Shown here: positions 14,001-64,000 of the stretch, piece after piece
Layout of the letters: each line of letters opens with the position of its first letter
How positions within the stretch are numbered: the stretch's first letter is position 1
Program-made: the position numbers and the translations under genes
NCBI GenBank assembly: GCA_000091205.1
Contig: AP006493.2
Direction: 5' to 3' (one strand)
Source: Cyanidioschyzon merolae
Lineage: Eukaryota
Length of the DNA stretch: 64,000 nucleotides
The notes under the pieces: model-generated
Seen by the model: only the letters and a program-made list of their open reading frames with translations
What the model was told of the DNA's origin: nothing
The model's database searches: none

Positions 14001-15394
14001 GTCGTGGCTCTCGCCATGACTGTTAAGCAAGCGGAGGATGCCGAATACCTGAAAGAAAAGGTAACGAAGCTGTTTTCGTTCCCCAGGGATCGATACGGTC
14101 TTGCGTCAACCCTGACAGACACCTGGATGCATACCAATACATGAAACGACGGAATCAAGAGCAATCTCGACGTTCCGGGCATCGTATCGAGCTGAAGCAG
14201 ACCCTCCGTGCGCTTCTTTCAGAGAGTACGCCATACCAAAAACGGCTCGCACGCATGTTCTTTTAGTAGAAGTACGTGAGACTCTGTTGGGGTTACTTAA
14301 CGTCTTGGTTGTACGAAGGCAAGAAGTGTATATTCGCAAACTTGCTCAAAGAGCTGGAAGAGGAAATGATCGGTTCATTGCGTTATCTGTTGGTCGCCTT
14401 TGGCGCTAGAGGTGCTGTAGCGTGCACGGGTCGGGTTCCTGCTTTTATAGAGAAGGTCGTCGAACGAGTGCAGGAATCGATTCTGTGCCATTCTCGTGGA
14501 TGCCTCTAGGACGATGTACGCGGATCACGAGCGGAAACTTGCGATGGAAATTGGTACAGGAGCAAGTGCGAAACAGAGACGGATGGACGAGACGGCGTGC
14601 GTGACGCTCTCCGTACGCCAGATGGCGATGCAATCCAATGGAGGCGGCTTGCTGTGACGTGACTCCACTAGCACTGACGCGCATGTGCACGCCTTGCATC
14701 GAGGCCTGACCGCAGTCATCGAATTCCCGGCAATAATTCGTGCCTCAGGAGCGTCCATCAGCTTTTTCTCTAGCAAACTTTCGAGATAATCGTTTAGCAC
14801 TTCGTGCGGGCAGTGAAATGAAACATTACAGGTTTTTGATGGAAAACCAGTGACCCTGAGAGAGCGATCTGATTCTTGCCTGGAGCAAAGCACTGGTATG
14901 GTACTGGTCAGCAATCTGGCAAGGCTGGAACGCAGTATACATACACAGAGAACTGTTTTTCTGTGCAAATGTCGATCGTTAACAGTTTCCCGTTATTCAA
15001 TATCACTAGGTATATTCGATAAAAAAGGGATCACCGTTCAAAAAAGCGAGGATTTCCCGCAAACATTCCTCGGCTGCAAATTGCATGGGCAGCACATGAA
15101 CTGCATCCGATACATGCAGACCGGCCATCTGAGCGATGTACACGTTGTCTATGCGGGCGTATCGAAGATCGAGCGCACGCATCAACCATTTGAGCAAGTT
15201 TACCACCAGGACGCCGTGATCTCGTTCATGCAAACAAGACGGACCAGACGCACGCCGACCGGCCTCCTCCGCGATCCCCTCGTTCATGCGTCTGCACGTC
15301 GCGGCTGAGAAGATCTCATAGACTACGACCGAGCAAAACCCCGTGTCACCTGAGATCAACAGTCGCGCGTCTGGACGTCCCGGTTGATGCGACC

Positions 15395-27323: not shown

Positions 27324-28348
27324 TTATTTCATAAACAGCATATGCATGACAGTGGAGCGCAAAAATATCCGCGAACATGTAAGGTACTTATTTACCCGCG
27401 CACAGACGCCTCCCAGCCTCTTTTGACAGGCCAATTGCTGTCGTTTCAGCTCCTTTTTGTACAATTTGAGTCTGAGAAGCTGGTCGAAAAGGCTGGACCG
27501 CATCAGATCCGCGAGTCTCGGCATCAGCATCGCACATCGTCTGATATCGATGGCGGCGTTCAAGTCTCGGTTCAGAGACTCCATGATTTTATTGACGCTG
27601 GTTGAACTCACCAATGCAATGATTGCTGCGGCCTGTGCACTTTGCGAGACTGCAGTCACGTTATCGGCTCGTCGGGCAGATTCCTTTCCCAGACGATAGC
27701 CACTGTTCGATTGCATCCTCTTCGTCACTCGCGATTTATCGCTGGATGGTCGGCGACGAGAGAATTTTTTGTCGAAATCCGAGATACCGGGCCTCCAGGA
27801 CCCTCAACTTCGATGCCCATAGGCGTCCACTGGATTTTTTATTTCTTCAAAATGAACGCATTTGTTGATTCCCTCAGGTGCGGAGCTTCGCGGAGCAAGA
27901 AGGACCCTCTGAAGAGAGATGCAATGTGCCCTGGTCTGTCAAAGAGTGCTCAAAGCTTCAGCGATTCGCTCAGTTGAACGATCAGTATGTTTTACGATAG
28001 AAAACACTCTTTCGATACGGTTGAATCACGGTGGGCATGTAGGAATGAAAAGCAGCTCTATCCCTAGAGAATGAGCAAACGCACGAGCGCAATCGGACTG
28101 GTCGAGTGCCACATAGTCCAGTTGAAGGATGTCTCCAGATTTCACGTGAAAAGTTCTCAATGATTCGTCAAAGTGGTTTGTGCTGCTGTACGAGCGCTCT
28201 CTACGAGCGAAACTGAGTCCGTTACTTGAATCCAGTGCAGCTCGAACAGAGGACGATGTCGTCGTCCTTTTCGAGTTCGCTCATACACACAACGGGCGCC
28301 CAGCTCCGCGAGTGCCCATATGCGCTCCGACCGTTTCATCCGGAGCAT
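27324..28348 (-). pseudogene. degenerate TnpB/Fanzor-like copy (RuvC-II-like block at about 28.2 kb, RuvC-III block at about 27.5 kb)
   Basis: 28157..28348(-) 'ERIWALAELGARCVYERTRKG' aligns with 'ADRLLAEAINRTKTLVVEFGNG' and 'ADRVLAEDIAQRKRVITHETE' of other copies. 27324..27728(-) 'SVNKIMESLNRDLNAAIDIRRCAML' closely matches the RuvC-III 'HRDLHAAINIRKCAVL' of the 39.5-41.6 kb copy. Confidence 0.4.
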
Positions 28349-29049
28349 GTATCATCGAGTAGGACGAATGCGCTGTCGTCCTGCAAGAAGGATGTGCACT
28401 TCAGTGCGAAATCGACAGTGTGTTGTTCAGTGCGGGATTTTCTCTGTTAGAAGCGTGCTTTTTGTTTGTTCCTCCGTTTCTCTTCATTAACGGTCGTATC
28501 AACGGTACGCAATCTTCAGATCCTGTCGCATATTTGGTAATATTTTGTAGACAAGGCGTGGAGTGGAATGGATTGACAAGAAGAAAAATTTTTCGGCTGC
28601 GTCGAGTACATTCGGATTTGGTTGCGCGGCGTTCACGATTCGGCGTACGAGAAGCGTAAATCACTTGCCAGCTGACCGTCGCATATCCGTTTTGGACAAG
28701 TAAGACGATTTCCGCAAGGCAGCTGTGGTATCATAAAGTTTTTCTGTGACCTTTATCGAAGCTCTCGTCTACGTTGGGTTTGTTGAACGCCTGCTAGAGA
28801 AACGAAGGAAAATCGAGAATGGCTCGGTGATACATGTAGTCCAGAAATCACTTTTCTGTGTATTACTGCCCAGCATTGGCCATGCGTTGCCAAGGCGCTC
28901 CGTCGAAATCCTTTCGTATCAGCATGGAATTGAACGGGTTTACCTGGCGAACCCGGGCGAATACTCTAAAATGATGGTGACTTCCCAGAGTCACGAACGA
29001 CAGTCCTCACGCGCCTTTTCTACGATTGCTTCCTGTTCCTCTCGCTTAT

Positions 29050-41570: not shown

Positions 41571-41781
41571 ACACGAGAGAGTTTTGTGGGACACCCTCTC
41601 AAAGTGGAACTATATGAGAAGAAGTTGAAACCAGTAGTAGGTGGCCGGTCCAAAACGACGGGGAGGCCTCTGCACGTCAATTGGAGACTTCTTGTCCAGG
41701 GCGCGGTTGCTGCCACTACTGGACACCGCTGGCGTCGTTCGACTTTCGATCGGTGCGCAATCGCGGCAGCGTCTCGACAGT

Positions 41782-44737: not shown

Positions 44738-47700
44738 AAGCGTCTGGTTGAAAGCAGCGCCTCTGTCGTGCGGCGTCTGGCCGGTCGGTACGAACTTGTT
44801 TCGTTACATGCCACCGGCCTCTGAAAGAAACGCTAATGCATGTCGTGAATGCTCCGAGCCCGACTATATTTGTTGCGTTTCGCATGAGGTTGCATGATTC
44901 TTCCCTGCGGGCCGGCTTCGGTGGCATCATTTCCTTTTGCGGAACGCAGACCTGCGGTGATCTGAACAGCAATCTCGGGACGAACTGTACCATTGCTTGC
45001 ATTCATTTTTTCTCACAGGTATTGGACGACTGGAGTATATCGTGTAGATAGGAGAAAGGTTGCAGAATGGATTTATGCTTGAAGCGCTAGCCCGCGAACA
45101 ACGGTCTACTTGACCACTTCAGGTTTTCTACAGTCCACAGTTAGATGGACTGTCATTCTCGAGGTCGGTATTCTGAACGTCGCGCTCCCGAAACACAACA
45201 TGACAAATGCTGTCTGCACCTACGACTGGCTCCTCGCTGATCACTTCCATGCCACATGTCCTCTAAGAAATACTGCCGAATAAGCTAAAGGATGTGTTGG
45301 GCGCGTGCCACTCTTACGAACAGTGATGAAGAGACGCGGATGGACAACTGAACAAGCATGCTTGTATGGCAGACTGTCGCGCATTGCGCAACACACTACC
45401 GAATCGAAGTGAAGCACGAAAGCGTATGATAGTTGGGGCAAAAGTTCGTCTCATTGTATGAGACTTGATTCGGTCAACATGCTCGCCCTGTATATATGTG
45501 CCCAAAGGGGCAAACCGCTGTTCTTACAGAAGAAACATGCGAGGATGACCACAACATCAGCGCTAGCGGCGATGCTGTCGATTAATCGCCTACTTACCGG
45601 CAAACGCACAGGATCGTTCAACATTTCATCCGTCACCGCAGCATACCTTGGTTTCTTTTTCGTGCTTTCCTGAATACTGCTCGTAGGAAACGCCGCTGTC
45701 CATCATGGAACACAAGTCAAGTCGTACGCGACTGAGATTATTGACGTTGTGCTACTCGTCGTGACAGTCTATTTTCGCTCGTTCAATCGCGTCGAAGTTG
45801 TATATTTGGTCGTCAAAAACCATTTTTTACCCTGTAAGTTCAAGAATAGAGTCGTTTCCATCCCCACGGCACCAAATTTCTGTGCCATATCCTCCACTGA
45901 CGTCTCGCTGCCTACCGTAACCAGCTCCGAACTGCGGTCGTGCTTCTCTGCTAGTGCGCTGGACAGATCAAAGACGCTCGCTTCGGTCTATGGGCGTGCT
46001 CGGGACGGAGCAGTTGAATACAAGGTCCCTGATGAGCAGTAGATACATTCATCGAGAATGCGAGCTTCCGAGCCACCGTCCACCCCATGCTTCTGAATCT
46101 CAAGAAAAAATTGTCTGTAGCGTGTAGCGACCAAACTTATGCCACGCTACCAAGAAAACGAGAATGGAAAGATTCCAACAGACAACGAAGTGCAATATGC
46201 TTTCGAAAAGGGACGGCAACGTACATGAAGAAAAGCCTGTTGGGGCGGAAGGATTTGCCGCAAGCAGTTGCCACGAAATTCGTTCTATCACACATCTGCC
46301 AGGAGAATCTACGAAAAATTGAGGCACGTGACACCATGAAGAATCGCCAGGCTGCTCACTCGTACAAAGCTCGTCTGGCTTTTCTAGCTCTAACGCACCA
46401 CGTAAAGCAAGTATACATAGGAGTTCTGGGCGCAAGGCTACTACTTAGCCGCATTTCTCCGGAATTATTTGAGAAAACGTTCATGCGATGATACAGCAGA
46501 TGCATGGAACAGAGGATGCAAGACAACCTGATCGTAAGATACGAAATGTGCACACCTAAGCTTCCCAGCATACCGTGACACGTTGCCAGGCAGCGTCGGC
46601 GATCGCTGCGATGCCTGCCATCCGAGTCCAGGACTCTATTCCGTGTAAAGAGCAGAGACGTGAGCGTCGAGCAGCATATCGTATGAGAAATATATCATGC
46701 TGCCGTCGAATGCCGTTTCGCTGATAGCCGGAGCGATCGGTGGTGGAAACGTCTTTCGAACGGAATCCATCATTGAATGGTAGAAGTTCTGGGAACTTTC
46801 CTAATGGGTTCGCGAGCAAGTCCTCAAGAGACGACGTTGGGCATTTTTCCTCGTCAGTCCAGCGGTCTGCGTCGCTTCGCCCACAACTTGCGACCGAAAG
46901 ACCGAAAAATGAAGCATGCGAGGTTTGAGCATGCTACCTGTAAGGGAACGAGAAGATTCCAGACTCGTGCGTATGCAGTGGATAATAGTATCGGTGCAAT
47001 GACCAACCCGTGTTCGAAGGCGTCGCGAATCATCTTGATGACGATGACGCAGCAAAGTCCAGCGGTACAGTGTCGAACGAGCCACTCCCTAGAGACTTCG
47101 GAGATTCCTGAAATCCGCATATACATTCGTAAGCTCTTGTTGCTGTGCTTCGCATACCCATGCCGCACAGCTATACAAGTTCGGAGACTATCGAAAAGCA
47201 GGAACATATCGGGTAATTGAGCGTTCCACTCTAATCCGACACACTTGCAGCGCACCTAGCTACAGGAACGCTTTTCCACCACAACAGCGGCGATGTTTGT
47301 ACGAAACCTGCACTCGTCTGCGATCCAGGAGCGACACCGAAATCGTGCGCTCGGAGCAAGGCCTCGGAGGAGAATCATCCCTGCCAGAGATCCGTGACGC
47401 TGCTCCCTACCGAACAAGACGTAGCAGTTCGCGTCATGTCCGGAATGCTGTAGCAAGTATCGCGATGATCGCTTCCTACGGTTTGTTGCAGTGCATTCAG
47501 GTTCAAGGAGGCTCAGCACGCATCCTCAAGGTTCACTTCAAGCGTGCATGTTCCATGTCATCGTATGTGAGGCAACGCTCAGTACGCAGCCGAAAGCTCA
47601 AGAACAGCCATCCAAGCAGGCATTGCTCAACGGGCGACAACAGACTCCAATGCATTTCACGGGGTTCCGTTCTTGGACGCTTCGGTGCAGGGATATGGAC

Positions 47701-49825: not shown

Positions 49826-51297
49826 TCACCACCCAGCGCTACAGCTTCTGGTGCACTGCAACAGCTTCTGGTGCACTGCAACAGCTTCTGGTGCACTGCA
49901 ACAGCTTCTGGTGCACTTCAACAGCTTCTGGTGCACTTCAACAGCTTCTGGTGCGAAGCGCAAGCACGAAGGGCGCTTGTACTGAGCGTTCGCCGGCGAT
50001 GATCCGGGGCGCCGGCACGCCGCATGAAGAGGTGCTCGGGTGGATCGCGGGATACTGCACCTATGGCTGGAGTGGGGATCTGACGCCCGTGAAAGAAATT
50101 GGACCTGCATAACCACCCAGACGTTATAGATGAGGACAACGATACATGTTTGATGGCCATGGAGGGTGAATATGTATGTATTTACGCGCAGAGGCCTCGC
50201 AGCCTTTTTTGACTGGCCGCCTTCGATCAGTTTCAGCTTCTCGTTGTATCCGATGAGCCTGAGAGGCTGCCCAACCAAGTCACATCGCGTCAGCTCTTGG
50301 GGTATCGTTTTCAGCACCGCACATAGCCTGATATTGAGTACAGCGTTAAAATCCCGGTTCACGAACATCTCGCGTTTATAGCCTCTGTTAGAACGCGCCA
50401 TTGCAAAGAAAGCTGGAACTCGTGCCCTCATTGCCATTTGGTGCTCAGTCAGCTCTCTGTCATTTTCTATCGCACAAGCGATCCACTGGCGTGTCTCTAT
50501 GCCGGCCGTCTGAAGTGCATATGCCCGCTCGTCCCAGAGATTTTTTAATCTTTGAAAGCGGCCGCACTTGTACACACCCATAGGTGAGGAACTTCTCGGA
50601 AAGACAAGGATTTACGCAGGATAGACGAAAGATGCTTCGGTGCTACCGTGGTGGAAGCTTTTGCGATTCGCCCATCGGAGCTATTATGATATGTGTCATG
50701 ATAGAAAACGCTCCTTCTATAGATATGGACCTCGGAGCCTAAGGAGGAATGAAAAGCAGCTCTGTCCCCGATAGAATCAGCAAAAGCTCGAAAGAGAATG
50801 TTGAAAGGCCACGGTGTCCAATAGATGCACGTCGCAAGAAGTCAGAGAACAATCTTCCATGATTCGACGAGTTGGGAGCTAATGTATACGCCCTCTCTAC
50901 GAGAGAAACTGAGGCCGACAAATGCATCTACCAAAGTTCGAACAGATGATGATGTCGGTGCTCTCTTCGAGTTCGTTGTACGTACAAAGAACTCCGTCTC
51001 TGCGAATACCCGTATACGCTTCGACCGTCTCATCCGAGGAAAGTATGATCGACTGAAAAAAAACAACCGACGTTCCTGTGCTTCATGCAGATCGCAACGT
51101 TCCAGGAACACTAGAGTTGCGATTTCGATGGACCATGACCGGGTGTGAACCAGGACTCTTTTTATGCGACTGTATCCGAGTGCTTTCAGGGCTGCACGAA
51201 CAAGATCTTGAGAATCAGAAATGCCACTGCTGGCTATGATCATCGCTTTCGCTTTTCTTACGATGATCAACGGGTCGTTTTCTACCATTGACCGCAA
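49826..51297 (-). pseudogene. degenerate TnpB/Fanzor-like copy (RuvC-II-like block at about 51.1 kb, zinc-finger remnant and RuvC-III block at about 50.3 kb)
   Basis: 50842..51297(-) 'VRAALKALGYSRIKRVLVHTRSWS' (RuvC-II-like). 49826..50581(-) 'GVYKCGRF...REMFVNRDFNAVLNIRLCAVLK' (RuvC-III). The antisense-frame signature 'STAHSLILSTALKSRFTNI' (50166..50381+) matches the antisense of the 39.5-41.6 kb copy ('STAHFLILIAACKSRCTN'). Confidence 0.4.
49841..49953. repeat. 20-bp minisatellite (acagcttctggtgcactgca) x about 5.5
   Basis: Units align exactly with the 10-base print groups, with the last copies c->t variants. Lies between the SerRS ORF and the TnpB-like remnant. Confidence 0.9.
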
Positions 51298-52283: not shown

Positions 52284-54665
52284 TCATGATAGGAAACTCT
52301 GGATGACGGCGTCGACAGCACTCGGGTCCGCAAGGGTGCTCAGGTCGCCGAGAACACTGCGGTCCAAGTCCCGACCCTGTTCGGAGATTTTTCGCAGAAT
52401 TCGCCTCATGATCTTTCCACTGCGAGTTTTGGGCAGTGCTGGCGTCCAGATGATGCGCTCTGGTGCGGCAAAGGCGCCAATCTCTTTGCGACACGTCTGC
52501 ACAAGTTCGTTGCGCAGTGTATCGCTCGGTGTATAGCCATCAGCCAAGATAACGAAGCACGCAATACATTCGCCCTTGATCTCGTGCGGCATACCAACAA
52601 CTGCTGCCTCAGCAACTGCGGGATGCCGTACCAGTGCGCTTTCCACCTCTGCGGTGCCGATTCGATGTCCGCTCACATTAATGACATCGTCGACTCGTCC
52701 AGTGATCCAGATATATCCATCACCGTCGCGGCGGCAGCCATCGCCAGTCATGTAATAGCCGGGGAACGGTTTGAAGTAGCCGTTCTCGAAGCGCGCTTGG
52801 GCTCCGAATATCGTGCGCAGGCACGAGGGCCACGGATCACGGATGCAGAGATATCCCTCACTTTCTTGGCCGGGTACAAAGGGGATCTCCTTGCCCCGGT
52901 CATCAAGCACCGCCAATCGAATACCGAAAAACGGTACACCTGCTGATCCAGGTTTTTGTTGAAAGCCACGAACTGGAGGCGAGATCACAACGTGTGCGCC
53001 AGTCTCTGTCTGCCAGTAGGTGTCGACAACATTGCAACGACTGTCGCCGACCACCTGATGGTACCACTCCCAGACCTGCGGGTTAATGGGTTCCCCAACG
53101 GTGGCCAGGATCTTGAGGGACGTCCGTTTGTATCTTTTGACGTACTCGTCGCCGGCCTTTTTCAGGGAACGTATCGCAGTTGGCGCCGTGTACAAGTGCG
53201 TCACCTGATATTTGTCGACAATGGCCCAGAGTCGCCCGGGATCCGGCCATGTCGGGACACCCTCGAAAAGCACCTGGGTCGCAGCATTGAGCATGGGTCC
53301 GTACACTACGTAACTGTGGCCCGTGATCCACCCGCAATCAGCGGTGCAAAAGTACACATCACCGGGCTGGTAATTGAACGAGTACTTGAATGTGAGCGCG
53401 GCATTAACCATGTAGCCGCCCGTGGTATGCAGGACACCCTTGGGTGTCCCAGTGCTGCCCGAGGTGTACAGAAGAAAGAGCGGATCTTCGGCTTTCATCC
53501 ACTCAATGGCATCATCAGGTCCAGAGACAGCCTCTTCCATGGCAACGCGAAGGTCAACATCGCGTCCGGCCTGCATCGTCAAGTTTGGTAGCATCGATTC
53601 ACCCAAACGCCGCAGCACCAACTGGCAAGAAACGTGGAAACTGGGATCCCTCGTTTGGCATATTTCGATCGCTTCATCGACCGTCGCTTTCAGTTCGATT
53701 CGTTTCGGGCCACGTCTGATGCCATCACAAGAGAGGATCACCGCCGATCTGGCATCGAGAAGCCGCCCTGCAAGCGCCTCAGCGGAGAAGCCCCCAAACA
53801 CTACATTGTGAACGGCTCCAATACGCGCACATGCCAACATCGCGGCTGGTAGCTCGGGCACCATTGGCATGTAGATCGTAACGGTATCCCCGCGCCGCAC
53901 ACCCTGTCGACGCAGCACTCGAGCGATCCGTTTCACCATATCTAGCAGCTCGGCATAGGTTATCGCACGATGTGTATCCATGTCGTCCATATCGTTTGCC
54001 TCACAGTAGAGCGCAACCCTATTGCCTAGCCCTTGTTCAACATGGCGGTCAAGCGCGTTGTAGCAGATATTAGTCTCTGCTCGGAAAAACCATTCGACTT
54101 GAATGGGTCCTTGGCGCACGTCAAAGTTATAGCGGTAGACGCTGTCTGGTGTGATTGCATTAGGGTCCCGCCAATAGAAGTTATTCCTCGCCATTTCTAA
54201 CCAAAACCCAGTAGGGTCACGTAAGGAACGCGTGTACATTTCGCAGTAAGTCTCATAGTCAGGAATATGGAACGCAGAATTGCGCAGGTACTCTGGCGAC
54301 GCCGAAACGCCGCTAGCACGCAGCGTCGACGCCAACGCAGCGTCAACTTCCTGGGGCGGCATCAGCGACGTTGTGGCTCGCGACCTCTCCACCCTGTGTG
54401 CACACGCCCGTAGTTCTCGAATTATGCCCCGCTGCCGATGCACAGTTCTGAATCTGAGCACTCGCTGGTTGCAGGGGAAGCAACGCCGCTGCTTCCCAGG
54501 AACGTCAAAGCCCCGAGCGCGAACTTGAACTGGGAGCTGGACAAGGCCAACGAATGCTGCCTGAATGAGTCCGGTACTAGGCATGCAGTTGCTCGCAGAG
54601 GGTATGCTCTCGGCACGGGTTGCTTTGAAAACCAGCGCTCGCTGTCGTGCGATAAGGGTACGCAC
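52284..54665 (-). CDS. acetyl-CoA synthetase (AMP-forming); about 100-aa N-terminal extension in ORF, likely start at about 54362
   Basis: 'FWLEMARNNFYWRDP' N-terminal ACS block, AMP-binding signature 'LLYTSGSTGTPKGVLHTTGGY', 'TYWQTETGAHVV', 'GYYMTGDGCRRDGDGYIWITGRVDDVINVSGHRIGTAEVESAL', C-terminal 'LPKTRSGKIMRRILRKI'. Confidence 0.8.
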   Translation of the reverse strand: MRTLIARQRALVFKATRAESIPSASNCMPSTGLIQAAFVGLVQLPVQVRARGFDVPGKQRRCFPCNQRVLRFRTVHRQRGIIRELRACAHRVERSRATTSLMPPQEVDAALASTLRASGVSASPEYLRNSAFHIPDYETYCEMYTRSLRDPTGFWLEMARNNFYWRDPNAITPDSVYRYNFDVRQGPIQVEWFFRAETNICYNALDRHVEQGLGNRVALYCEANDMDDMDTHRAITYAELLDMVKRIARVLRRQGVRRGDTVTIYMPMVPELPAAMLACARIGAVHNVVFGGFSAEALAGRLLDARSAVILSCDGIRRGPKRIELKATVDEAIEICQTRDPSFHVSCQLVLRRLGESMLPNLTMQAGRDVDLRVAMEEAVSGPDDAIEWMKAEDPLFLLYTSGSTGTPKGVLHTTGGYMVNAALTFKYSFNYQPGDVYFCTADCGWITGHSYVVYGPMLNAATQVLFEGVPTWPDPGRLWAIVDKYQVTHLYTAPTAIRSLKKAGDEYVKRYKRTSLKILATVGEPINPQVWEWYHQVVGDSRCNVVDTYWQTETGAHVVISPPVRGFQQKPGSAGVPFFGIRLAVLDDRGKEIPFVPGQESEGYLCIRDPWPSCLRTIFGAQARFENGYFKPFPGYYMTGDGCRRDGDGYIWITGRVDDVINVSGHRIGTAEVESALVRHPAVAEAAVVGMPHEIKGECIACFVILADGYTPSDTLRNELVQTCRKEIGAFAAPERIIWTPALPKTRSGKIMRRILRKISEQGRDLDRSVLGDLSTLADPSAVDAVIQSFLS

Positions 54666-55442
54666 CGGAGAGTAAACGCTTGGAATGGGTAAATTTAGAA
54701 TGGAGACGCTTTCGCGACGAAGGCGCAGGTGCGTTATCAGGTCGCCGGCGTATGCGCAGGGCTGCTACGGACAGCGCGTGGTCGCTTCGCGGCGTCGGGG
54801 TACCGAGATCGATGTCCTTAAAGTGCAGTTATGTACAGAAACATCCGTTGGGCTATAATTATACAACTATATCCTATTTGTTTCCGTTCGTGTTCGCACA
54901 GGCACTCAGTGCCCGGCACGCACCGCGAGCGACTGGAGCACTGTCGCGCACAGCTCTGATGCTGGCAAAGATAGCTCGCGATACGCCGCATTATTTCTAC
55001 AAAGCAGTCATTCTGTGGACACTACGACAATACACCGCCTGTATCGTTATCGGTATCCTGAACATCGTGCGCCCGCACCAAAACACGTTCAACAATCTCT
55101 ACGCAACTGCCTACTCGCCAAGCCATTCCAGCTTATGCCTTCTCGAAGGAATGCCGCGCAACAGGCGCCAGCATCTGAGGTTCGCGTACCGTTGCATCGC
55201 ACGACGACAACGAGACATTGAGGGTCAGCGCAGAAGGCAGGTTTCTGTGCGAGACCGTCGCGCTGCGCACATGACGCCGTCAATGGCGTCCCTCAAGGAG
55301 CATACATATCCCAGAAGCGACAGGAGTTCACCTCGCTCGATTCCAGTCCACGACGGGAGCACTGCTTGGCCTGTATGCAGGCAACCAAAACGTGGCAATC
55401 CGCTGTTCGCAAGGAAGCGACATGCGCGTACGACAAAAAGAA

Positions 55443-55480
55443 CAGCACCAACAACAACAGCGGCAGCAGCAGCAGCAGCC
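55443..55480. repeat. (CAA)n(CAG)n microsatellite inside repeat copy 1 (also present in copy 2 at about 61894-61931)
   Basis: caacaacaacagcggcagcagcagcagcagc. Confidence 0.85.
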
Positions 55481-56916
55481 CAGGAGCCGATGCTGGCGAG
55501 CGGTCGCCTACAAACCGCCACACAGACGGCGTCGTTCCTCACCTCATCCTGCGTTGAAACATTTCGAGGCTTCTCCATCGCGCTTGCTGATGCCCTGTCC
55601 TTGGACAGCGCCGCCTAGCACAGCACGGGAGAAGCACCGGCGTACGCATCTGGGATTCGTGTTCAGCTGCTCTTTGTAGCAGTTTGTTTTCCGCGGCCTC
55701 ATCCAGCGGCATGCGGCCTGTCTCTGCGTCGCCAACAACCGTTTCTACGCCCACGGACACGTTTCGAAAACACGACTCGCTCGCGTCCCCGGCACCGAGA
55801 CAAGCCGGACGCCGTGAGCGATAGCGTAGCACCGTCCCCGAGAGACTCTCGCCTCCTTGATGGACGTCGCGTCCGAATGGTCGCTGAACCGTGATGCCTG
55901 GCTTCCCGGCATCTCGCGCTACTCCGTTTCCGTAAATAGCGCTGGGCAGCGCATACCAGACTGCCTCCGGGAACGTGAGCGCCCCCCGCTCCCTCAACAG
56001 TCTAGTGGATATGGTCCATGGTTACGAGACCAGGACCCATGAGGGTACCCGCTGAGACACTCTTTGTCGCGTGTGGCCTTCCTGGTGCGCGATGCCCGGT
56101 CTATCTACGCAGCAACCAGGACACATTCGTACTGCTCCGCAGCGGGCATCGGCCGAGCTCGTCCAAGCTCTTTCGCCTACGCGCTCGGAGCCCAAAGACG
56201 TTTACAGCGACCACGGACACTGACCGAATATCACTTTGGATGTGCTCTGTGAGACCCAGGCCTGCGTCTCGAAACAGGACTCGATTTACGCCCATAGAGA
56301 TAGATGAAGAGCAAGTATTCAGGGCGGGCGTGGATCCCGAGTTCGAGTGCGTCACGACTGCCGCCGTGCCTCCAGCCCAGCGGGGCAGAACCGGCGATCA
56401 GCACCGCGAGCAGGTGTCGCTGCTCAGCCTGCTCCACGACTCGGTACCAGCGGGCGTCGTGCACCACACACACACCAGGAGGCGTACCAGCAGGTGCAGT
56501 GACTACCTCAGGGGCTATCTCGGCAATCAAAGCATCCTATCGAGCAGCGGCGGATGCTTCGTGCAGTGCACTCAGAGCGCCTATACGAGCGTCCGAATGC
56601 AGCACGCGGACGCTTTTCGACACAGGTACATGACACCGTGCTGCTGTCGCCAATGGCATCGATTGTGCGGAGCCAAGGAGCGTACATCCACACCGCCTAG
56701 TTCGGTGCGTCGGAAACGGGAATCATCGACGAGGCGCGCGGTATGCCTGAAACCTCTGGTACGGGGTGTGCTTTTGGAGCACACGGGCTGCACTCGTGCT
56801 CCTTCGATGCGAGCGTGCGACAGGCACAAGAATCGATTCCGTACAGATCCCGTCGACGAATGCACGACAACATACAAGTATCACGAACTGGGGTTCAGCC
56901 TAATCCAGTTCGAGAA

Positions 56917-57100
56917 GAAAAAGAGCATGAAACAGAGATCAATGCACGGGATGGTGTACGGGACGCCGAACGAACGTCAGATGGCGACAGCGTCAAAGTT
57001 CGGTGACCTCGTAGAGCCTGAAACAGAGACCAATGCACCAGGTGGTGTACGGGACGCCGAACGAACGTCAGATGGCGACAGCGTCAAAGTTCGGTGACCT
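56917..57100. repeat. 87-bp tandem duplication (2 units) inside repeat copy 1
   Basis: 'atgcac..ggtgtacgggacgccgaacgaacgtcagatggcgacagcgtcaaagttcggtgacctcgt' occurs twice consecutively, giving duplicated ORF text 'GVRDAERTSDGDSVKVR'. Confidence 0.8.
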
Positions 57101-58053
57101 CGTTTGGTGCGAATGTGCCAGCACCTAGGCGCCCAGGCTCTTTCCATACTACGACTTGAGCCGCTCGATCAACACGCGGAAGCGAGTCTTGGTTTGAGTC
57201 GAGCGAGCTTTCGACGCAGTCGTTCAGTACTCAGTATCGGTGCGCTGCTGAAACGCTGATGACGCTCGATGGAAAACTCAGTGGTCAGCAGAGAGGGAGT
57301 TGGATTCCAGACTGGAGCAAGGCACTGGTATGGTGCGGTTGGGAAATCCCGCAATGCGAGAGCGGCTTGGGTATGCTCTGAAGACGATGTTCTTTGCCAA
57401 CAAGCGAGCGATAATGATGCTCCGTTATTCGATGTTCGTTCGCATCAGTACACCATGATTCGCGAGACAGACTCGCACCACCAGCGCATCCAGTCCGCCC
57501 AGCACCTGACCATGGGCAGCAAGTTACGTCATGTGGACTCACATTCACAAGAAAAATGAGGATGCTGTCATGTCAACCGCGGGCGATCGCGTTGCCAGTG
57601 AACTTGGGCTAAACTCTCCCATTATGAAGATTGCGGTTCGAAGCAAGCGTTTCGGGGATGGGATACCGGCGTGATGCCACGCCTAGGCGCGATACGGTTG
57701 CGATGTGACGAACCGATGCTCGCATACACAGCAACGGCACCAGTCAAAGGCAATACCTTTTCGACAGCCTCCGTCCGATCGCTCGTCGCACAGAGAACCT
57801 AGACGCTCTGATGTACGCTAAAACGAATGCGCATATCTACAGCAATGCATGGTGTACGCTCCCAAAGCCTGTTGCAGCTCGGCAGGTATAGCCTGCCTGA
57901 CATGTATGTAGCGGAATCGATACTCCACGAGCTTGTCCACATGTCATGCTTGCCCGGACAGCTGGACGAGCTGAACAGGCGTGGAAATGAGCGCTTTATC
58001 CATGAACCTGCATCACTACCGTTCCAACTTCCGCATTAGATGATGCGCATGGA

Positions 58054-59367
58054 ATGCTCTTTCAACATATGCGTGGAGGAAAACGTGTGGAGTCACTGCT
58101 CCGCCGCCTCGCTCGCTATCTATCCAGGGGCGCTGCTATTGCTGGCTTGCTTCTCTGTTGCCTCTGGGTGACTTCGTACCTGGTGCGCTCGCCTAGCACC
58201 GGGCTGCGTGTTCCCGACGCGAATGACGGTCGCGCAGGTGCTGGAGCAGCTGCGCTCTCAGAGCCCCTGGTCAGCACAACAACAACAACAACTGGGGACA
58301 CGGCGCGACGCCAGGTCGCCGACGATGCTGTGACCTTTGCACTCGTTGTCATCAACCACGGCAGCGTACCTTTCTTTCTGAACTGGGTTTGTCACTACCG
58401 TTGCGTGCTTCAGTCGCAGTTCCTCGCGGGCACCGTGCGGCTTCCGGTGACCGTCCGGGCAAGAGCCACCGACGGTAAAGTCCTCGACTGGTTACGGCAG
58501 CGGAGCCTGGACACTCCATGGCTCCGGATACGAGCAGCCCGTGCCCCTCTTGCTAGGGCAGTCGCTTCCTATCAAGCTATGAAAGCGTCAAACAGTCTCT
58601 TTTATGAAATTGAAAGACAAAAATTCTCGGCAGTGCATGCAATGTTTGCGCGGACGACGCACCTTCCATCTCGATTCTATCTGCTCGTCTGCGATGTCGA
58701 TGTAGTGTTTCTGCACGAGCCAGTTAGAGCCATACTTAGATACGGCGACGCTGACCTCTACATGCAGTGCGATGGATGCAACACCGAGCTGTACGGGGCG
58801 CAGCAGGTGCAGTGCCCCTATGAGTACAACACAGGTTTCATGCTCTTTGCCGTTGATCAGCGAACCCGCAGCGGCAGATTACGATTTCAGGCGATACGAC
58901 AACTGATTGCAGAGGTTGTTCACGAGTCCATTAAGACAGAGCGCGCACGTCAACTACAACCTGAACGAAAGTCTGTACACGATCAATTCATTTTCAACAA
59001 GGTTCTGAAGAAATGGACTCATAACCATATGGTACAGTTACGTTCACCGTATGAGAACATGACGTCTATCGCAGGAATAGAGTATGTGCGCCCACGCATC
59101 ATGTATCTCCCGTATGAGGTGTTCCCGAACGGATGTGTGTTGTTTGGATACCGGCATCGCGAGCCGTCTCCAGCTGTTCGTGCCCTGCTCGAGAGAGGCC
59201 TCGTCGTGGCTGTACATGCAAACTATCGAAATGGCGCCTCTGAAAAATGGAGGGCGCTTCGCAGTGTGAATCTAACGATCGCATCGACACAGGAAGAGTC
59301 GCTCAACGCTCAGTTATGTCCTCCGTGCGATGAAATCCAAGCTACAGCATCAACGGGGCACATGTAG
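58054..59367 (+). CDS. type II membrane protein with nucleotide-diphospho-sugar transferase-like domain (putative DxD glycosyltransferase)
   Basis: N-terminal signal anchor 'AAIAGLLLCCLWVTSYLV'. 'FALVVINHGSVPFFLNWVCHY' and 'YLLVCDVDVVFLHEP' resemble GT-A fold nucleotide-sugar transferase blocks (DxD). The family assignment is tentative. Confidence 0.4.
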   Translation: MLFQHMRGGKRVESLLRRLARYLSRGAAIAGLLLCCLWVTSYLVRSPSTGLRVPDANDGRAGAGAAALSEPLVSTTTTTTGDTARRQVADDAVTFALVVINHGSVPFFLNWVCHYRCVLQSQFLAGTVRLPVTVRARATDGKVLDWLRQRSLDTPWLRIRAARAPLARAVASYQAMKASNSLFYEIERQKFSAVHAMFARTTHLPSRFYLLVCDVDVVFLHEPVRAILRYGDADLYMQCDGCNTELYGAQQVQCPYEYNTGFMLFAVDQRTRSGRLRFQAIRQLIAEVVHESIKTERARQLQPERKSVHDQFIFNKVLKKWTHNHMVQLRSPYENMTSIAGIEYVRPRIMYLPYEVFPNGCVLFGYRHREPSPAVRALLERGLVVAVHANYRNGASEKWRALRSVNLTIASTQEESLNAQLCPPCDEIQATASTGHM

Positions 59368-60186
59368 ATTCGCGAAAGCCACAGAACGCCGGGCAACGTG
59401 TCTACATGCTTGCTGCTAAGGCGCTCTATCCACTGGTGTCCGCAACGATGGTGCATTTCGCGCTCGTGGCATGCTTTTGCGCGTTCCTGACAACGCTAAC
59501 AGCTTGCCGGCTGTCGCTTGGGTAAAGTCGCTTCTGTGCCGGAAATCCCTGCACAATGTCCGTGACAATTTCCTAAAGCGTTCATGAAAGCTCTGATCGG
59601 GGATTAACAGTTGAGCGAATGGCATCGAGCGGCCAGCGTCGGTGTGCATCCTAGCTATCGCGTTTTGTCCACTTCATACGGGATTGGCATCTGCGGCTCC
59701 CTCCGCTGCGCTCTCCATTCATCCATGACCGATGCTTGAGCAACTTCATTTCGTGAAGTTTCAACGGAGTAAGCGCTAGCGCCGCAAATGCTCGCTCGTG
59801 CTCACCTACGTGGCAGATCTCAGAGAGGCACCACGCGATTGACTTCTCCTGACGTGACATTCTGCGCCAAGTCGGCAAGCGTGCCGCGCTCCAGCCTCCA
59901 TGACGGAAGTTGGGCGTCTTCCCGTCTCTGCTTTCTGCTATGCTTCCATACAGGTCGACAAGAGTCACTGAGAAAATGCGATTAGCACGGATCTACCCCC
60001 TGATGCGCCAGCAGCGGTGCTTGCTGCTTTCAGACATCTCTCGACGAGGCCACACAAATGCTGTCATCCGCTCCGTCTTGATGATTTCGGCACTAATAGG
60101 TGATCCTGCAAGGGTCCAACGCCCACTTATACAGCGTAGATGCTACCTATGAATGCCAGGTTCTCTAAGCTGTCACTTACAGACGC

Positions 60187-61176
60187 CTACACCGAATCGC
60201 GAAGAAGCTTACGGTCCTTAGCGGCAGCTTCGCGTTCTCGTCGCTCGAGATGCCGTTTCCAACCTCGATGCTTTTTCATTGACGCGTCGCGCTCCTTCTG
60301 CAACTGGTCTCGAATCATGCTGCGTTTCCAAAAGAAGGGACGCGTCTTCCTACCGGCAGCAAGCTGCTCAGTCTCTTCTCGTTTGTGGCGTCTAAGTAGC
60401 GCTTGGAAGCTCTCGGTAACTTCGTCTCGTCGAACTTGATTCTGACGTCGGTCGACTTCGGAGCGCAACTCCTTGTGCAGCGAGCGCAGCGTATCGCGTT
60501 CGGATTCATGGGCAATTTTCAACCGCTTCTCTAGAGCGGCTAGCTTAATTTTTGCTTCATCCAAAGCTTTTCGACGAAGGTCTCGGAGAAAACTGTATCG
60601 CTGCTCGAAGACGTTCTCATCGAATCGGCCGCAGAGCGGGTCAAACCGAGGATCAACCGGTTTCGCAACCCGCTGGCTTACAACTTGGCGCGCGTTTCGC
60701 GTAGAGAGCTTACCTCCTGCATCCATAACAGCTGGTGCGTTCTTATGAGGTCTGCGCAAGCCGTTGTCCGCCGAGCTTTCAGTGGTTCGCACGCTGCCTT
60801 CCTCCTGCTTCTTCTGGCGCAGTTGGCGCACGTGTTCGGCTAAAGTGCGTACTGCTTCACTGGACTGTTCCTCTGATTTGAAGGGTTTCGTAGGGCCCGC
60901 CCCCTCACGCGCTCCGCGCTGAAACTTTTGCGATACGAGTGCGGGAATGGCGCTCATCGCGCTCGAGACTTCTGCAGCGAGCGGGCCGGAGCTCGTGCTT
61001 CGACCAGTTCGCTGCAGCACCTGAGGTCGCGACTGTGCTGCCTTCTCGGACGGTTGCACAGTAGCTGGCGCACCACCGGTCCTTGAGCGCTTGTTCTCCA
61101 TCCAAGAGTTACAAGGGCGCACGTTGCTGCTTGACGTGCACCAGTACTTGACACCGTACGGTGGCTTGAATTGCAA
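60187..61176 (-). CDS. rRNA biogenesis protein RRP36-like
   Basis: C-terminal domain 'DPRFDPLCGRFDENVFEQRYSFLRDLRRKALDEAKIKLAALEKRLK...RPFFWKRSMIRDQLQKERDASMKKHRGWKRHLERRERE' follows the RRP36 pattern (DPRF...G.F....F...Y.FL; KPFYLKKSE...LKK). Basic/Ser-rich N-terminus. Confidence 0.5.
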   Translation of the reverse strand: MQFKPPYGVKYWCTSSSNVRPCNSWMENKRSRTGGAPATVQPSEKAAQSRPQVLQRTGRSTSSGPLAAEVSSAMSAIPALVSQKFQRGAREGAGPTKPFKSEEQSSEAVRTLAEHVRQLRQKKQEEGSVRTTESSADNGLRRPHKNAPAVMDAGGKLSTRNARQVVSQRVAKPVDPRFDPLCGRFDENVFEQRYSFLRDLRRKALDEAKIKLAALEKRLKIAHESERDTLRSLHKELRSEVDRRQNQVRRDEVTESFQALLRRHKREETEQLAAGRKTRPFFWKRSMIRDQLQKERDASMKKHRGWKRHLERREREAAAKDRKLLRDSV

Positions 61177-61289
61177 TAGTTTTCGGGTAGCTGCTCAGGC
61201 GCCATACTGGCAGCAGCACAGCAGTCGATGAGGAATATGCATATTTATACAGCGATGTCTAGTAATGTCGCGGACGCTTCCTTGCAAGG

Positions 61290-63895
61290 AGTTGTGCATC
61301 TGGATATAATTATACAACTATATCCTATTTGTTTCCGTTCGTGTTCGCACAGGCACTCAATGCCCGGCACGCACCGCGAACGACTGGAGCACTGTCGCGC
61401 ACAGCTCTGATGCTGGCAAAGATAGCTCGCGATACGCCGCATTATTTCTACAAAGCAGTCATTCTATGGTCACTACGACAATACACCGCCTGTATCGTTA
61501 TCGGTATCCTGAACATCGTGCGCCCGCACCAAAACACGTTCAACAATCTCTACGCAACTGCCTACTCGCCAAGCCATTCCAGCTTATGCCTTCTCGAAGG
61601 AATGCCGCGCAACAGGCGCCAGCATCTGAGGTTCGCGTACCGTTGCATCGCACGACGACAACGAGACATTGAGGGTCAGCGCAGAAGGCAGGTTTCTGTG
61701 CGAGACCGTCGCGCTGCGCACATGACGCCGTCAATGGCGTCCCTCAAGGAGCATACATATCCCAGAAGCGACAGGAGTTCACCTCGCTCGATTCCAGTCC
61801 ACGACGGGAGCACTGCTTGGCCTGTATGCAGGCAACCAAAACGTGGCAATCCGCTATTCGCAAGGAAGCGACATGCGCGTACGACAAAAAGAACAGCACC
61901 AACAACAACAGCGGCAGCAGCAGCAGCAGCCCAGGAGCCGATGCTGGCGAGCGGTCGCCTGCAAACCGCCACACAGACGGCGTCGTTCCTCACCTCATCC
62001 TGCGTTGAAACATTTCGAGGCTTCTCCATCGCGCTTGCTGATGCCCTGTCCTTGGACAGCGCCGCCTAGCATAGCACGGGAGAAGCACCGGCGTAGGCAT
62101 CTGGGATTCGTGTTCAGCTGCTCTTTGTAGCAGTTTGTTTTCCGCGGCCTCATCCAGCCGCATGCGGCCTGTCTCTGCGTCGCCAACAACCGTTTCTACG
62201 CCCACGGACACGTTTCGAAAACACGACTCGCTCGCGTCCCCGGCACCGAGACAAGCCGGACGCCGTGAGCCAGAGCGTAGCACCGTCCCCGAGAGACTCT
62301 CGCCTCCTTGATGGACGTCGCGTCCGAATGGTCGCTGAACCGTGATGCCTGGCTTCCCGGCATCTCGCGCTACTCCGTTTCCGTGAATAGCGCTGGGCAG
62401 CGCATACCAGACTGCCTCCGGGAACGTGAGCGCCCCCCGCTCCCTCAACAGTCTAGTGGATATGGTCCATGGTTACGAGACCAGGACCCATGAGGGTACC
62501 CGCTGAGACACTCTTTCTCGCGTGTGGCCTTCCTGGTGCGCGATGCCCGGTCTCTGTACGCAGCAACCAGGACACATTCGTACTGCTCCGCAGCGGGCAT
62601 CGGCCGAGCTCGTCCAAGCTCTTTCGCCTACGCGCTCGGAGCCCAAAGACGTTTACAGCGACCACGGACACTGACCGAATATCACTTTGGATGCGCTTTG
62701 TGAGACACAGGCCTGCGTCTCGAACCAGGACTCGATTTACGCCCATAGAGATAGATGAAGAGCAAGTATTCAGGGCGGGCGTGGATCCCGAGTTCGAGTG
62801 CGTCACGACCGCCGCCGTGCCTCCAGCCCAGTAGGGCAGAGCCAGCGATCAGCACCGCGAGCAGGTGTCGCTGCTCAGCTTGCTCCACGACTCGGTACCA
62901 GCGGGCGTCGTGCACCACACACACCAGGAGGCGTACCAGCAGGTGCAGTGACTACCTCAGGGGCTATCTCGGCAATCAAAGCATCCTATCGAGCAGCGGC
63001 GGATGCTTCGTGCAGTGCACTCAGAGCGCCTATACGAGCGTCCGAATGCAGCACGCGGACGCTTTTCGACACAGGTACATGACACCGTGCTGCTGTCGCC
63101 AATGGCATCGATTGTGCGGAGCCAAGGAGCGTACATCCACACCGCCTAGTTCGGTGCGTCGGAAAAGGGAATCATCGACGAGGCGCGCGGTATGCCTGAA
63201 ACCTCTGGTACGGGGTGTGCTTTTGGAGCACACGGGCTGCACTCGTGCTCCTTCGATGCGAGCGTGCGACAGGCACAAGAATCGATTCCGTACAGATCCC
63301 GTCGACGAATGCACGACAACATACAAGTATCACGAACTGGGGTTCAGCCTAATCTAGTTCGAGAAGAAAAAGAGCATGAAACAGAGATCAATGCACGGGA
63401 TGGTGTACGGGACGCCGAACGAACGTCAGATGGCGACAGCGTCAAAGTTCGGTGACCTCGTAGAGCCTGAAACAGAGACCAATGCACCAGGTGGTGTACG
63501 GGACGCCAAACGAACGTCAGATGGCGACAGCGTGTAAGGTCGGTGACCTCGTTTGGTGCGAATGTGCCAGCACCTAGGCGCCCAGGCTCTTTCCATACTG
63601 CGACTTGAGCCGCTCGATCAACACTCGAAAGCGAGTCTTGGTTTGAGTCGAGCGAGCTTTCGACGCAGTCGTTCAGTACTCAGTATCGGTGCGCTGCTGA
63701 AACGCTGATGACGCTCGATGGAAAACTCAGTGGTCAGCAGAGAGGGAGTTGGATTCCAGACTGGAGCAAGGCACTGGTATGGTGCGGTTGGGAAATCCCG
63801 CAATGCGAGAGCGGCTTGGGTATGCTCTGAAGACGATGTTCTTTGCCAACAAGCGAACGATAATGATGCTCCTTTATTTGATGTTCGGTTGTCTA
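61290..63895. repeat. 2.6-kb dispersed direct repeat, copy 2 (includes 87-bp tandem at about 63368-63550)
   Basis: Collinear with 54840..57450. Similarity begins at 'ataattatacaactatatcctatttgtttccg' and ends at 'taatgatgctcc(g/t)ttatt(c/t)gatgttcg', and flanks on both sides are unrelated. Confidence 0.85.
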
Positions 63896-64000
63896 GTTCG
63901 ACACAGCTTTCGTGCTCGTTCGCTTCGGATGCCGGTCGCGCTAGAGTCTCGAGTGCATACCTGCGCATGTAAATTGGTTCTGCATAGCTTGACGTGCTCT

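Follow-up and report, generated by a model that had tools for sequence, protein, structure and literature searches.

Two near-identical, directly oriented copies of a 2.6-kb repeat (R1 and R2) bracketed two single-copy host genes in a 64,000-nucleotide stretch of the C. merolae genome, hereafter the window, which the genes CMK101C and CMK102C assigned to chromosome 11 of strain 10D. The chances are slightly better than even that the pair represents sister copies of a discrete repeat element, non-coding and specific to the C. merolae lineage, and that it arose via local, recombination-driven copying. In such a process, a resident element would have been the template from which a second copy was made at a distance of 3.8 kb; alternatively, it might have overwritten an older family copy by ectopic gene conversion.

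The R1/R2 pair and the enclosed genes

When the window was compared with itself by BLAST, R1 (54851..57438, + strand) and R2 (61302..63887, + strand) were joined in a single gapped alignment of 2,588 columns with 98.45% identity (E = 0). The differences consisted of 38 mismatches and one 2-bp indel, positions 56465-66 of R1 being missing in R2, and the start-to-start distance was 6,451 bp to the left of this indel and 6,449 bp to its right. A preliminary description of this DNA had claimed two near-identical direct copies ~6.45 kb apart, which the alignment confirmed; its copy edges (54840/57450 and 61290/63895) were correct in location but ~10 bp too wide on each side. With a length of 2,588 bp and only two copies, the pair also fell within the definition of segmental duplications or low-copy repeats (≥1 kb, ≥90% identity, few loci). 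The limits of both copies were set with the self-BLAST, the junction sequences and independent contigs, and those of the unique spacer S between them (57439..61301; 3,863 bp) with the first two.

R1 was located in a divergent intergenic region, with the acetyl-CoA synthetase (ACS) gene on one side and a GT-like gene on the other. ACS, the left neighbor (52284..54584, - strand), was identified by Pfam and was identical to BAM80486.1; its ATG was 267 bp from the left edge of R1. The spacer contained CMK101C (58054..59367, + strand), which encodes a nucleotide-diphospho-sugar transferase-like protein of 437 aa (PF03407 Nucleotid_trans, E = 8.6e-14; identical to BAM80487.1), and CMK102C (60187..61101, - strand), which encodes the rRNA biogenesis protein RRP36 of 304 aa (PF06102, E = 2e-28; identical to BAM80488.1). 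RRP36 is essential in yeast. Homologs of CMK101C formed only three clusters among 5.8 billion proteins. A search for an RRP36 paralog found none, and RRP36 and the GT-like gene were both single-copy. Moreover, both were next to ACS in two outgroup genomes, which is their ancestral syntenic position. The claim that the 3.8 kb of unique DNA carries two genes, and that these are genuine host genes, was thus upheld. The accessions of ACS, CMK101C and CMK102C are consecutive; therefore, no protein gene is annotated within R1 or R2.

R2 was located between the 5' end of RRP36 and the 3' end of Dus, where the left breakpoint of an inverted block of three genes lies. Comparison with the outgroups revealed that this block (Dus-Prefoldin-OST48) was flanked by R2 and by R3, an inverted full-length copy of the same repeat family just outside the window, and that the inversion was lineage-specific, with family copies at both breakpoints. 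Two long contigs ended just inside R3. The sites orthologous to R1 and R2 in the outgroups were intergenic regions of 510-700 bp, both without R and without any hit to its family, and no R homolog was found at the outgroup loci by blastn, tblastx or nhmmer. Each R copy has been inserted cleanly into intergenic DNA that is otherwise of normal size.

The three flanking and enclosed proteins matched the finished 10D genome without any difference. In addition, contigs of independent short-read assemblies crossed the whole of R1 with both junctions (L005, L006, L015, L043, L045, and L046), the left junction of R2 (L007, L008, L009, L011, L015, and L029) and the right junction of R2 (L015, L016, and L019). 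Because the junctions were reproduced in contigs of at least six independent samples, the structure is not an assembly error, a possibility that the preliminary description had raised. R was found at identical junctions in 10D, which is from Italy, and in Yellowstone-type strains. The spacers of 10D and the Yellowstone-type contig L015 differed by 0.54%. The SNPs numbered 38 between R1 and R2 and 35-47 between 10D and Yellowstone-type R copies. The difference between R1 and R2 was therefore similar to that between strains, which places the copying, or the last homogenization, at about the split of 10D from the Yellowstone lineage. The proposal of a real and recent duplication was upheld.

The two R copies of L015 differed at four positions, and they may be one collapsed assembly node used twice. 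The R1/R2 differences showed an even spread over the length of R (max-gap P = 0.07). Gene conversion had been suggested by a surplus of alleles unique to copy 1 (15 vs. 4, P = 0.019), which vanished after nine more contigs were included. Polarizing the R1/R2 differences with the old copies gave a weak result (10/14/10). Finally, family homology 19-31 bp to the left of R1, and not of R2, was considered as a sign that R1 is the parent copy and was rejected as non-significant (P ~ 0.1).

Content, termini and family of R

Both copies contained a CAA/CAG microsatellite (55449..55479 in R1 and ~61900-61930 in R2, + strand), as had been described. The internal tandem duplication described earlier was also present; its unit, however, was 91 bp rather than 87 bp. 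Two units were found in R1 (56922..57103, + strand) and in R2 (63371..63552, + strand), and three in the Yellowstone-type contigs L016, L018 and L029. Overlapping nhmmer hits suggest that an older family copy at 12-15 kb of the window carries a single unit.

No Pfam domain was matched by the 13 ORFs of R, in agreement with the earlier observation that the repeat holds no recognizable protein domain. A codon-usage scan recovered the GT and RRP36 frames and nothing sustained within R. The ORF of 359 aa was disrupted in R2 by the 2-bp indel, and a word-indexed search with it returned only clusters of at least 96% identity. In the ORF of 152 aa, all six of the six R1/R2 differences were non-synonymous. 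A full HMMER search of 1.84 billion representatives with the ORF of 288 aa returned only itself and P0070, which was rejected as a relative since it is an unrelated tandem-repeat protein. Neither of two minus-strand ORFs was on record by exact look-up, and in tblastx between the diverged family copies the six frames scored alike, so that no conserved reading frame was detectable. A coding gene in R was ruled out by the codon usage, ORF breakage, non-synonymous differences, Pfam and protein searches. Likewise, an RNA gene was ruled out, as Rfam (E ≤ 1) and tRNA searches of R gave no match. The literature on locus tags CMK097-104 did not mention non-protein features numbered inside R. Overall, R has no coding capacity.

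R was found to belong to an old, modular and decayed repeat family that made up about 17 of the 64 kb of the window and most of the intergenic DNA of this region. The nhmmer matches within the window had E-values from 3e-75 to 2e-16 and covered positions 29-2584 of the 2588 of R, and the identities between the older copies and R were ~53-61% (~40-47% diverged). Module A (R ~1-950; 54851..55800, + strand) was common to 44977-45875 (+), 12234-12969 (+) and 28238-28842 (-), with E-values of 6e-46, 1.5e-23 and 2e-16 among these older copies. Module C (R ~1008-2588; 55858..57438, + strand) was common to 13507-15005 (E = 3e-75) and was also matched by R3 (E = 6e-50). An older, near full-length copy with modules A, B and C that was ~53% identical to R was located at 12234..15005 (+ strand; nhmmer and alignment). 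By nhmmer, another copy at 44977..46608 (+ strand) contained modules A and B, followed by part of module Y (to 47254), and a fragment of module A at 28238..28842 (- strand) sat between modules X (27351-28369) and Y (28918-30298).

The full-length A+B+C members were ~3.0 kb (window ~12.0-15.0 kb) and ~3.4 kb long (R3; L037, 7584-10997). Compared with them, R is a 2.6-kb derivative without module B that gained the 91-bp internal tandem duplication. Family copies were found in intergenic DNA and in both orientations. Module-A-bearing copies numbered five in the window and repeat segments (modules A, B, C, X, and Y) about nine, R3 being additional and outside. The right terminus of R was common to the family copies and both ends of R coincided with family ends, from which the R1/R2 boundaries deviated by at most ~5 bp on the right and ≤30 bp on the left.

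R started with GG(C/A)TATAATT and ended with GATGTTCG. Typical LTRs start with TG and end with CA. As the termini of R do not follow this pattern, no gag/pol was found inside and the spacer genes are conserved beside ACS in outgroups that have no R, R1 and R2 were rejected as an LTR pair. The earlier statement that no LTR-retrotransposon coding content lies between the copies was correct, the spacer holding the GT-like gene and RRP36. No terminal inverted repeats were detected when the first 300 nt were compared with the reverse complement of the last 300 (score 13; shuffles 12.5 ± 2.3), and a separate repeat search gave no inverted repeats either. No exact flank match of at least 3 bp was found for R1 or R2 with offsets of 0-3 allowed, and TSDs were thus also missing at the junctions where the preliminary description had suggested looking for them. 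The left ends of the older copies were too decayed to define TSDs. A TIR transposon of the Mutator or CACTA type was rejected because R has neither TIRs nor per-copy TSDs of 3 bp or 9-11 bp. Helitrons typically start with 5'-TC and end with 3'-CTRR, have a hairpin close to the 3' end and insert between A and T. A canonical Helitron was rejected, as the termini misfit on either strand, the flanking bases were G/T and T/G, and only weak hairpins were found (-9 kcal/mol). There are 26 non-LTR elements in C. merolae. A non-LTR retrotransposon or SINE was rejected as well, since R ends without a poly-A or other tail and has no TSD.

Origin of the pair

The preliminary description had offered a non-autonomous element family and a segmental duplication as alternatives, and both apply: R is a complete member of a family whose termini match the duplication boundaries, and R1 and R2 were the only near-identical pair in the data searched. 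A third young copy was found neither among the contexts of a right-edge 30-mer scan, all of them already known, nor with an ORF probe, the metagenome scan evidently covering few samples or omitting short contigs, as the pattern-bearing L005 was not returned. The idea that the unit is present only here did not hold in the sense intended, as diverged relatives were common in the window.

It is possible, if rather unlikely, that R is a recently active non-autonomous mobile element and that R1 and R2 are separate "local hopping" insertions of one young subfamily. The match of the duplication boundaries to the family termini at both ends fits this reading, as do the scatter of the family over intergenic DNA in both orientations and its absence from the outgroup sites. 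Moreover, the interspersed repeats and TE fragments reported for C. merolae are numerous, and the contig breaks just inside R3 could mean that near-identical R3 copies exist elsewhere. However, the TSDs, TIRs, Helitron termini or poly-A tail of known mobile elements are missing, a coding partner was not found within the window, and all other family copies seen are ~40-47% diverged, showing no sign of ongoing activity. R1 and R2 also have the same orientation and are just 3.8 kb apart. Given that the data searched contained no other young copy, that TSDs are missing and that HR is exceptionally efficient in C. merolae, a transposition burst is thought unlikely. The origin step of local copying is one that we only infer, and boundaries at element termini are also predicted by a transposition-type insertion. 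As for ectopic gene conversion, the older copies, at ~53-61% identity, are too diverged from R unless the R2 site held an R1-like copy.

A segmental duplication of the plain kind, made by non-homologous repair or by template switching in replication, with the repeat element included by chance, is improbable. In its favor, the copies number only two, are close together and direct and lack TSDs, and R2 lies at an inversion breakpoint, which is a setting for repair-associated duplications. Both ends of the duplication, however, are near family termini, which is unlikely for arbitrary breakpoints. Moreover, duplications that accompany inversions are normally found inverted and at each of the two breakpoints, unlike R1, which is direct and 3.8 kb away from the breakpoint.

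Under local recombination-driven copying, the directly repeated R1 and R2 would still be a crossover substrate, as the preliminary description had proposed, and this role is plausible; pop-out between direct repeats serves as an experimental tool in C. merolae (PMC13353863). Pop-out at this locus would remove the single-copy RRP36, the yeast counterpart of which is essential, and its product would therefore be expected to be purged in a haploid. Contigs of the deletion type, reading ACS-R-Dus with a hybrid R, were found (L017, 24.6 kb; L018, 8.1 kb), and the length of the circle-type contig L030 was precisely that of a single period (6,451 bp) and an overlap of 141 bp. They could be taken to mean that the locus is actively rearranging in nature, with R1/R2 crossover producing a real deletion and a 6.45-kb R+S circle or tandem amplification, and a diploid stage of C. 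merolae could shelter a lethal deletion (PMC13353863). We nevertheless regard this as quite improbable. Both forms are expected when R is collapsed in a de Bruijn graph and the graph is walked in alternative ways, and the overlap of L030 equals the assembler k of 141. In addition, ACS-R-GT was found in six samples vs. ACS-R-Dus in two, partly from the same sample series, RRP36 is single-copy, and the hybrid R of L017 has several allele switches instead of one crossover point. Thus, contigs of both types are indistinguishable from collapsed-repeat walks, and the structural variation suggested for the interval is only putative. Equally doubtful is a wider proposal in which the R family would be an unrecognized kind of non-coding mobile DNA without TIRs, TSDs or poly-A, spreading for example by HR-dependent copying and still shaping chromosomes; R2 and R3 would have made the Dus-Prefoldin-OST48 inversion, and R1 and R2 would yield real deletions and circular R+S with an essential gene in Yellowstone populations.

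Finally, an assembly artifact (a duplicated contig join) or an LTR-type element with captured host genes, suggested by the superficial LTR-internal-LTR look and the 4-bp GTTG shared by the outermost flanks of R1 and R2, where an LTR element would have a TSD of 4-6 bp and where, with so many flank pairs compared, such a match is compatible with chance, is effectively refuted already by the finished state of the genome, the junctions reproduced in at least six independent samples, the termini without TG...CA, the ancestral syntenic position of the internal genes beside ACS in two outgroups and the absence of LTR elements from C. merolae (PMC1955436).

Comparison with known systems

The genome of C. 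merolae is valued as the "simplest" among eukaryotes, and the alga as a model for HR-based engineering. A natural 2.6-kb direct repeat around a single-copy, probably essential gene is a locus at which the rates of crossover and gene conversion could be compared and selection against pop-out could be measured. Intergenic DNA built of repeats, together with family copies at inversion breakpoints, also bears on how very compact genomes rearrange. Current understanding is not overturned, because dispersed repeats of C. merolae have been known from a report of 2007 and a new annotation of 2022.

In C. merolae 10D, the "novel interspersed repetitive element" (WSV repeat) has 253 copies with an average of 3.2 kb, which is ~5% of the genome; its copies are dispersed on all chromosomes, and it is defined by a truncated ORF that resembles WSSV WSV486 weakly in BLASTX (Nozaki et al., 2007; PMC1955436). 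Published statements on transcription or H3K27me3 marking are general ones. Similar to the WSV repeat, the R family is from the same organism, is intergenic and on both strands, has full-length copies of 3.0-3.4 kb that agree with the WSV-repeat size of ~3.2 kb (~3.0 and ~3.4 kb for the A+B+C copies) and has no functional ORF. Different from the WSV repeat, however, five module-A copies per 64 kb exceed 253 per 16.5 Mb, R is shorter and without module B, and no conserved reading frame was detectable between the family copies.

The class II TE fragments annotated in C. merolae with EDTA number 1,755, of which 34% are Mutator, 24% Helitron, 2.5% CACTA and 40% unknown (Hisanaga et al., 2022; 10.1101/2022.10.24.513474). 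At about one fragment per 9 kb, their density agrees with the nine or so repeat segments of the window. R differs from Mutator and CACTA in having no TIRs and TSDs and from Helitron in having no 5'-TC/3'-CTRR, and it would fit the "unknown" class most naturally.

Similar to low-copy repeats that mediate NAHR, R1 and R2 are two direct copies of >1 kb and >95% identity around unique genes, for which crossover predicts deletion or duplication of the interval, and the inverted family pair R2/R3 flanks an inverted block. In contrast to such repeats, what is repeated here is an entire dispersed-repeat element and not an arbitrary stretch of the genome, and the recombinant allele is only hypothetical here. 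The pair also resembles the pop-out cassettes engineered in Cyanidiophyceae, in which a DNA segment lies between direct repeats, HR being very efficient in the genome, and from which excision by intrachromosomal recombination was shown experimentally (PMC13353863). Different from these cassettes, R1 and R2 are natural, much longer (2.6 kb) and enclose an interval with a probably essential gene; thus, excision is expected to be counter-selected.

Structure of the duplication and content of the repeat

The window has a GC content of about 54% and carries long, intron-free ORFs on both strands. Its self-BLAST returned one long off-diagonal alignment between the left copy (R1, 54851–57438) and the right copy (R2, 61302–63887) of a 2.6-kb repeat element, R. 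The two copies were in direct orientation and 98.45% identical over 2,588 columns, with 38 mismatches and one 2-bp indel, which confirmed the two direct copies of about 98% identity claimed in the preliminary description; their location was also right, but the boundaries given were off by ~10 bp. In a global alignment including the flanks, identity began and ended abruptly between unrelated flanking sequences, with GG(C/A)TATAATTATAC at the left end of both copies and GATGTTCG at their right end. The spacer between them was 3,863 bp long. R contained the CAA/CAG microsatellite described previously, and its internal tandem duplication consisted of two copies of a 91-bp unit, not an 87-bp unit (56922–57103 in R1 and 63371–63552 in R2).

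By Pfam, the ORFs flanking or enclosed by R1 and R2 encoded an acetyl-CoA synthetase (ACS), a PF03407 nucleotide-diphospho-sugar transferase (GT-like) and a PF06102 RRP36. They matched exactly BAM80486.1, BAM80487.1 (CMK101C) and BAM80488.1 (CMK102C) of C. merolae 10D, respectively, all carried on its 852,849-bp chromosome; for RRP36, the 10D record was the only exact match. These accessions are consecutive, and the reference annotation thus has no protein gene within R1 or R2. OST48, three genes beyond RRP36, is BAM80491.1. When 5.8 billion proteins were searched with CMK101C (58054–59367) at E ≤ 1e-5, its homologs formed only three clusters, those of C. merolae, Cyanidiococcus and one other relative; it looks like a gene confined to this lineage. 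Elsewhere in the window, a tandem array of about three ~40-bp units (94–97% identity) was found at 49838–49954, directly upstream of the seryl-tRNA synthetase (SerRS) ORF start.

Trained on the genes of the window, a scan of codon log-likelihoods recovered the frames of the GT-like gene and RRP36 and found no sustained coding frame in R. The longest ORF of R (359 aa) was disrupted in R2 by the 2-bp indel. Only a 152-aa ORF was intact in both copies with a brief positive codon signal, and all six of its R1/R2 differences were non-synonymous. In agreement with the earlier statement that the repeat holds no protein domain, none of 13 ORFs of R matched Pfam; no Rfam or tRNA match was found in R either. 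When the two largest ORFs were searched against sets of 5.8 billion proteins and 1.84 billion representatives, all hits were near-identical copies belonging to the same lineage.

A dispersed modular family and the origin of the pair

Besides R1 and R2, nhmmer identified four further matches to R in the window: 13507–15002 (+, R positions 1008–2584, E = 3e-75), 44994–45873 (+, 29–946, E = 6e-46), 12234–12969 (+, 211–990, E = 1.5e-23) and 28809–28238 (−, 34–628, E = 2e-16). These older copies were only ~53–61% identical to R, and the family homology covered positions ~29–2584 of 2588. In terminal alignments, four copies, each next to a different flank, shared the right end (…TTATTYRAT…), and the left start was similar in three copies. 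Thus, the boundaries of the duplication are the element's own termini.

We defined R 1–950 as module A and R 1008–2588 as module C. An extra module B, absent from R, was found at 12911–13506 and 46304–46608, and full-length A+B+C copies were 3.0–3.4 kb long. Modules X and Y formed mosaics with these family modules. The copies of module Y (~1.35 kb; 4001–5355 on the minus strand; 17232–18616, 28918–30298 and 46582–47254 on the plus strand) were ~61–63% identical, with nhmmer E values down to 1e-131; its sequence was unrelated to R and adjoined R-family modules in two mosaics. Copies of module X (E down to 1e-85) were at 27351–28369 (+), 50168–51058 (+) and 41326–41692 (−), of which one overlapped a 251-aa ORF upstream of the SerRS gene and another the end of the ORF at 40566–41426. 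Together, the five modules occupied ~17 kb of the 64-kb window, entirely in intergenic regions. All six frames of the diverged family copies scored alike in tblastx and the ORFs of the older copies had no Pfam match, which places the conservation at the DNA level.

Cyanidiococcus yangmingshanensis and another relative both had the gene order SerRS-ACS-GT-RRP36-OST48(−)-Prefoldin(−)-Dus(+)-large gene. Their ACS-GT and RRP36-OST48 intergenic regions were only 510–700 bp long and contained no R-family modules; R1 and R2 are thus lineage-specific insertions into ordinary intergenic regions. Without R, the two sites would retain 883 bp and ~635 bp, near the outgroup sizes.

R1 and R2 both lacked module B and both had the 91-bp duplication, and are thus sister copies. 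The number of 91-bp units differed between strains: two in 10D and three in the Yellowstone-type contigs L016, L018 and L029 from other samples. The R1/R2 differences in 10D (38 sites) were similar to those between 10D and Yellowstone-type copies (35–47 sites). Thus, the duplication, or its last homogenization, is of roughly the same age as the strain split, which agrees with the presence of R in both lineages. Compared with these 35–47 sites, the mostly coding spacer diverged by just 0.54% between 10D and the Yellowstone type; R thus evolves neutrally. In a gene conversion test, an early excess of copy-1-specific alleles disappeared once more contigs were added. The two R copies of the 33-kb contig L015 were near-identical, possibly by assembly collapse, and a post hoc excess of differences persisted at the outermost right end (P = 0.011). 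Recombination-based copying or conversion is favored as the origin of the pair over a transposition-like insertion.

An inversion and possible crossover products around the repeat

Relative to both outgroups, the OST48-Prefoldin-Dus block was inverted in C. merolae, across window positions 61302–64000, L015 10171–17785 and L037 1–11325. R2 lay at the left breakpoint, and an inverted, full-length but diverged family copy (R3; A+B+C, 3.4 kb; L037 7584–10997) at the right one, beyond which L037 carried the same large gene as the outgroups. Mutually inverted copies at the two breakpoints are the layout expected after inversion by recombination between inverted repeats; coincidence is also possible, since most of the long intergenic regions here are taken up by R-family elements. 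L015 (~17610–17785) and L017, from different samples, both ended ~170 bp inside R3, which L037 read through. In some strains, then, further near-identical copies of R3 may exist at other sites.

The repeat had also been proposed as a substrate for unequal recombination. L017 and L018 led from ACS through one hybrid R straight to Dus (ACS-R-Dus), lacking the GT-like gene and RRP36, and L030 (ENA ERZ27247235 k141_1006889; megahit) spanned exactly one period (6,451 bp) and looked circular. These are exactly the deletion and circle products predicted for a crossover between R1 and R2, which is mechanistically plausible because direct-repeat pop-out serves for marker removal in C. merolae (PMC13353863). 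However, both forms are also exact alternative walks of an assembly graph in which R is collapsed, the closure of L030 was a 141-bp terminal overlap equal to the assembler k, the full structure was found in six samples and the short-cut in two, and RRP36 and the GT-like gene were each single-copy. The three contigs are thus probably assembly artifacts, and a real crossover behind them is very improbable; such a crossover should be counter-selected. The observation in the preliminary description stood, and its interpretation was supported in part.

The duplication itself is genuine, as an assembly artifact is excluded by the finished, telomere-to-telomere 10D genome (PMC1955436) and by the same R1/R2 junctions in short-read assemblies made independently from closely related strains. 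The divergence of these strains, 0.5–1.1%, is in line with the 0.57% reported for 10D versus MS1, a strain from Yellowstone (PMC13353863). L015 matched 53721–64000 end to end at 98.98%. The path from ACS through R to the GT-like gene was read through in L005, L006, L043, L045 and L046, the RRP36/R2 junction was crossed by L007, L008, L009, L011 and L029, and the R2/Dus junction by L016 and L019. Many other contigs ended just within the repeat edges, as expected of a true repeat.

Comparison with known repeat elements

R fell outside every recognized element class. It was not an LTR element (no TG…CA termini, and host genes as the interior), a Helitron (termini do not match) or a non-LTR element/SINE (no tail). 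It was not a TIR transposon either, as it lacked TIRs, and no TSDs were found at the R1/R2 junctions where the preliminary description had suggested looking for them. That description had left a choice between an element family and a segmental duplication; R falls under the operational definition of the latter and also belongs to an old dispersed family. The 10D genome is reported to have no LTR elements and to contain a "novel interspersed repetitive element", 3.2 kb long on average, in 253 copies (PMC1955436). This average fits the 3.0–3.4 kb of the full-length A+B+C copies, a likeness in size to an element defined by its similarity to WSV486. A later EDTA annotation of C. merolae listed 1,755 TE fragments, 40% of which were unclassified (10.1101/2022.10.24.513474). 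R1 and R2 are best regarded as a young pair in the known but poorly characterized dispersed-repeat fraction of C. merolae.
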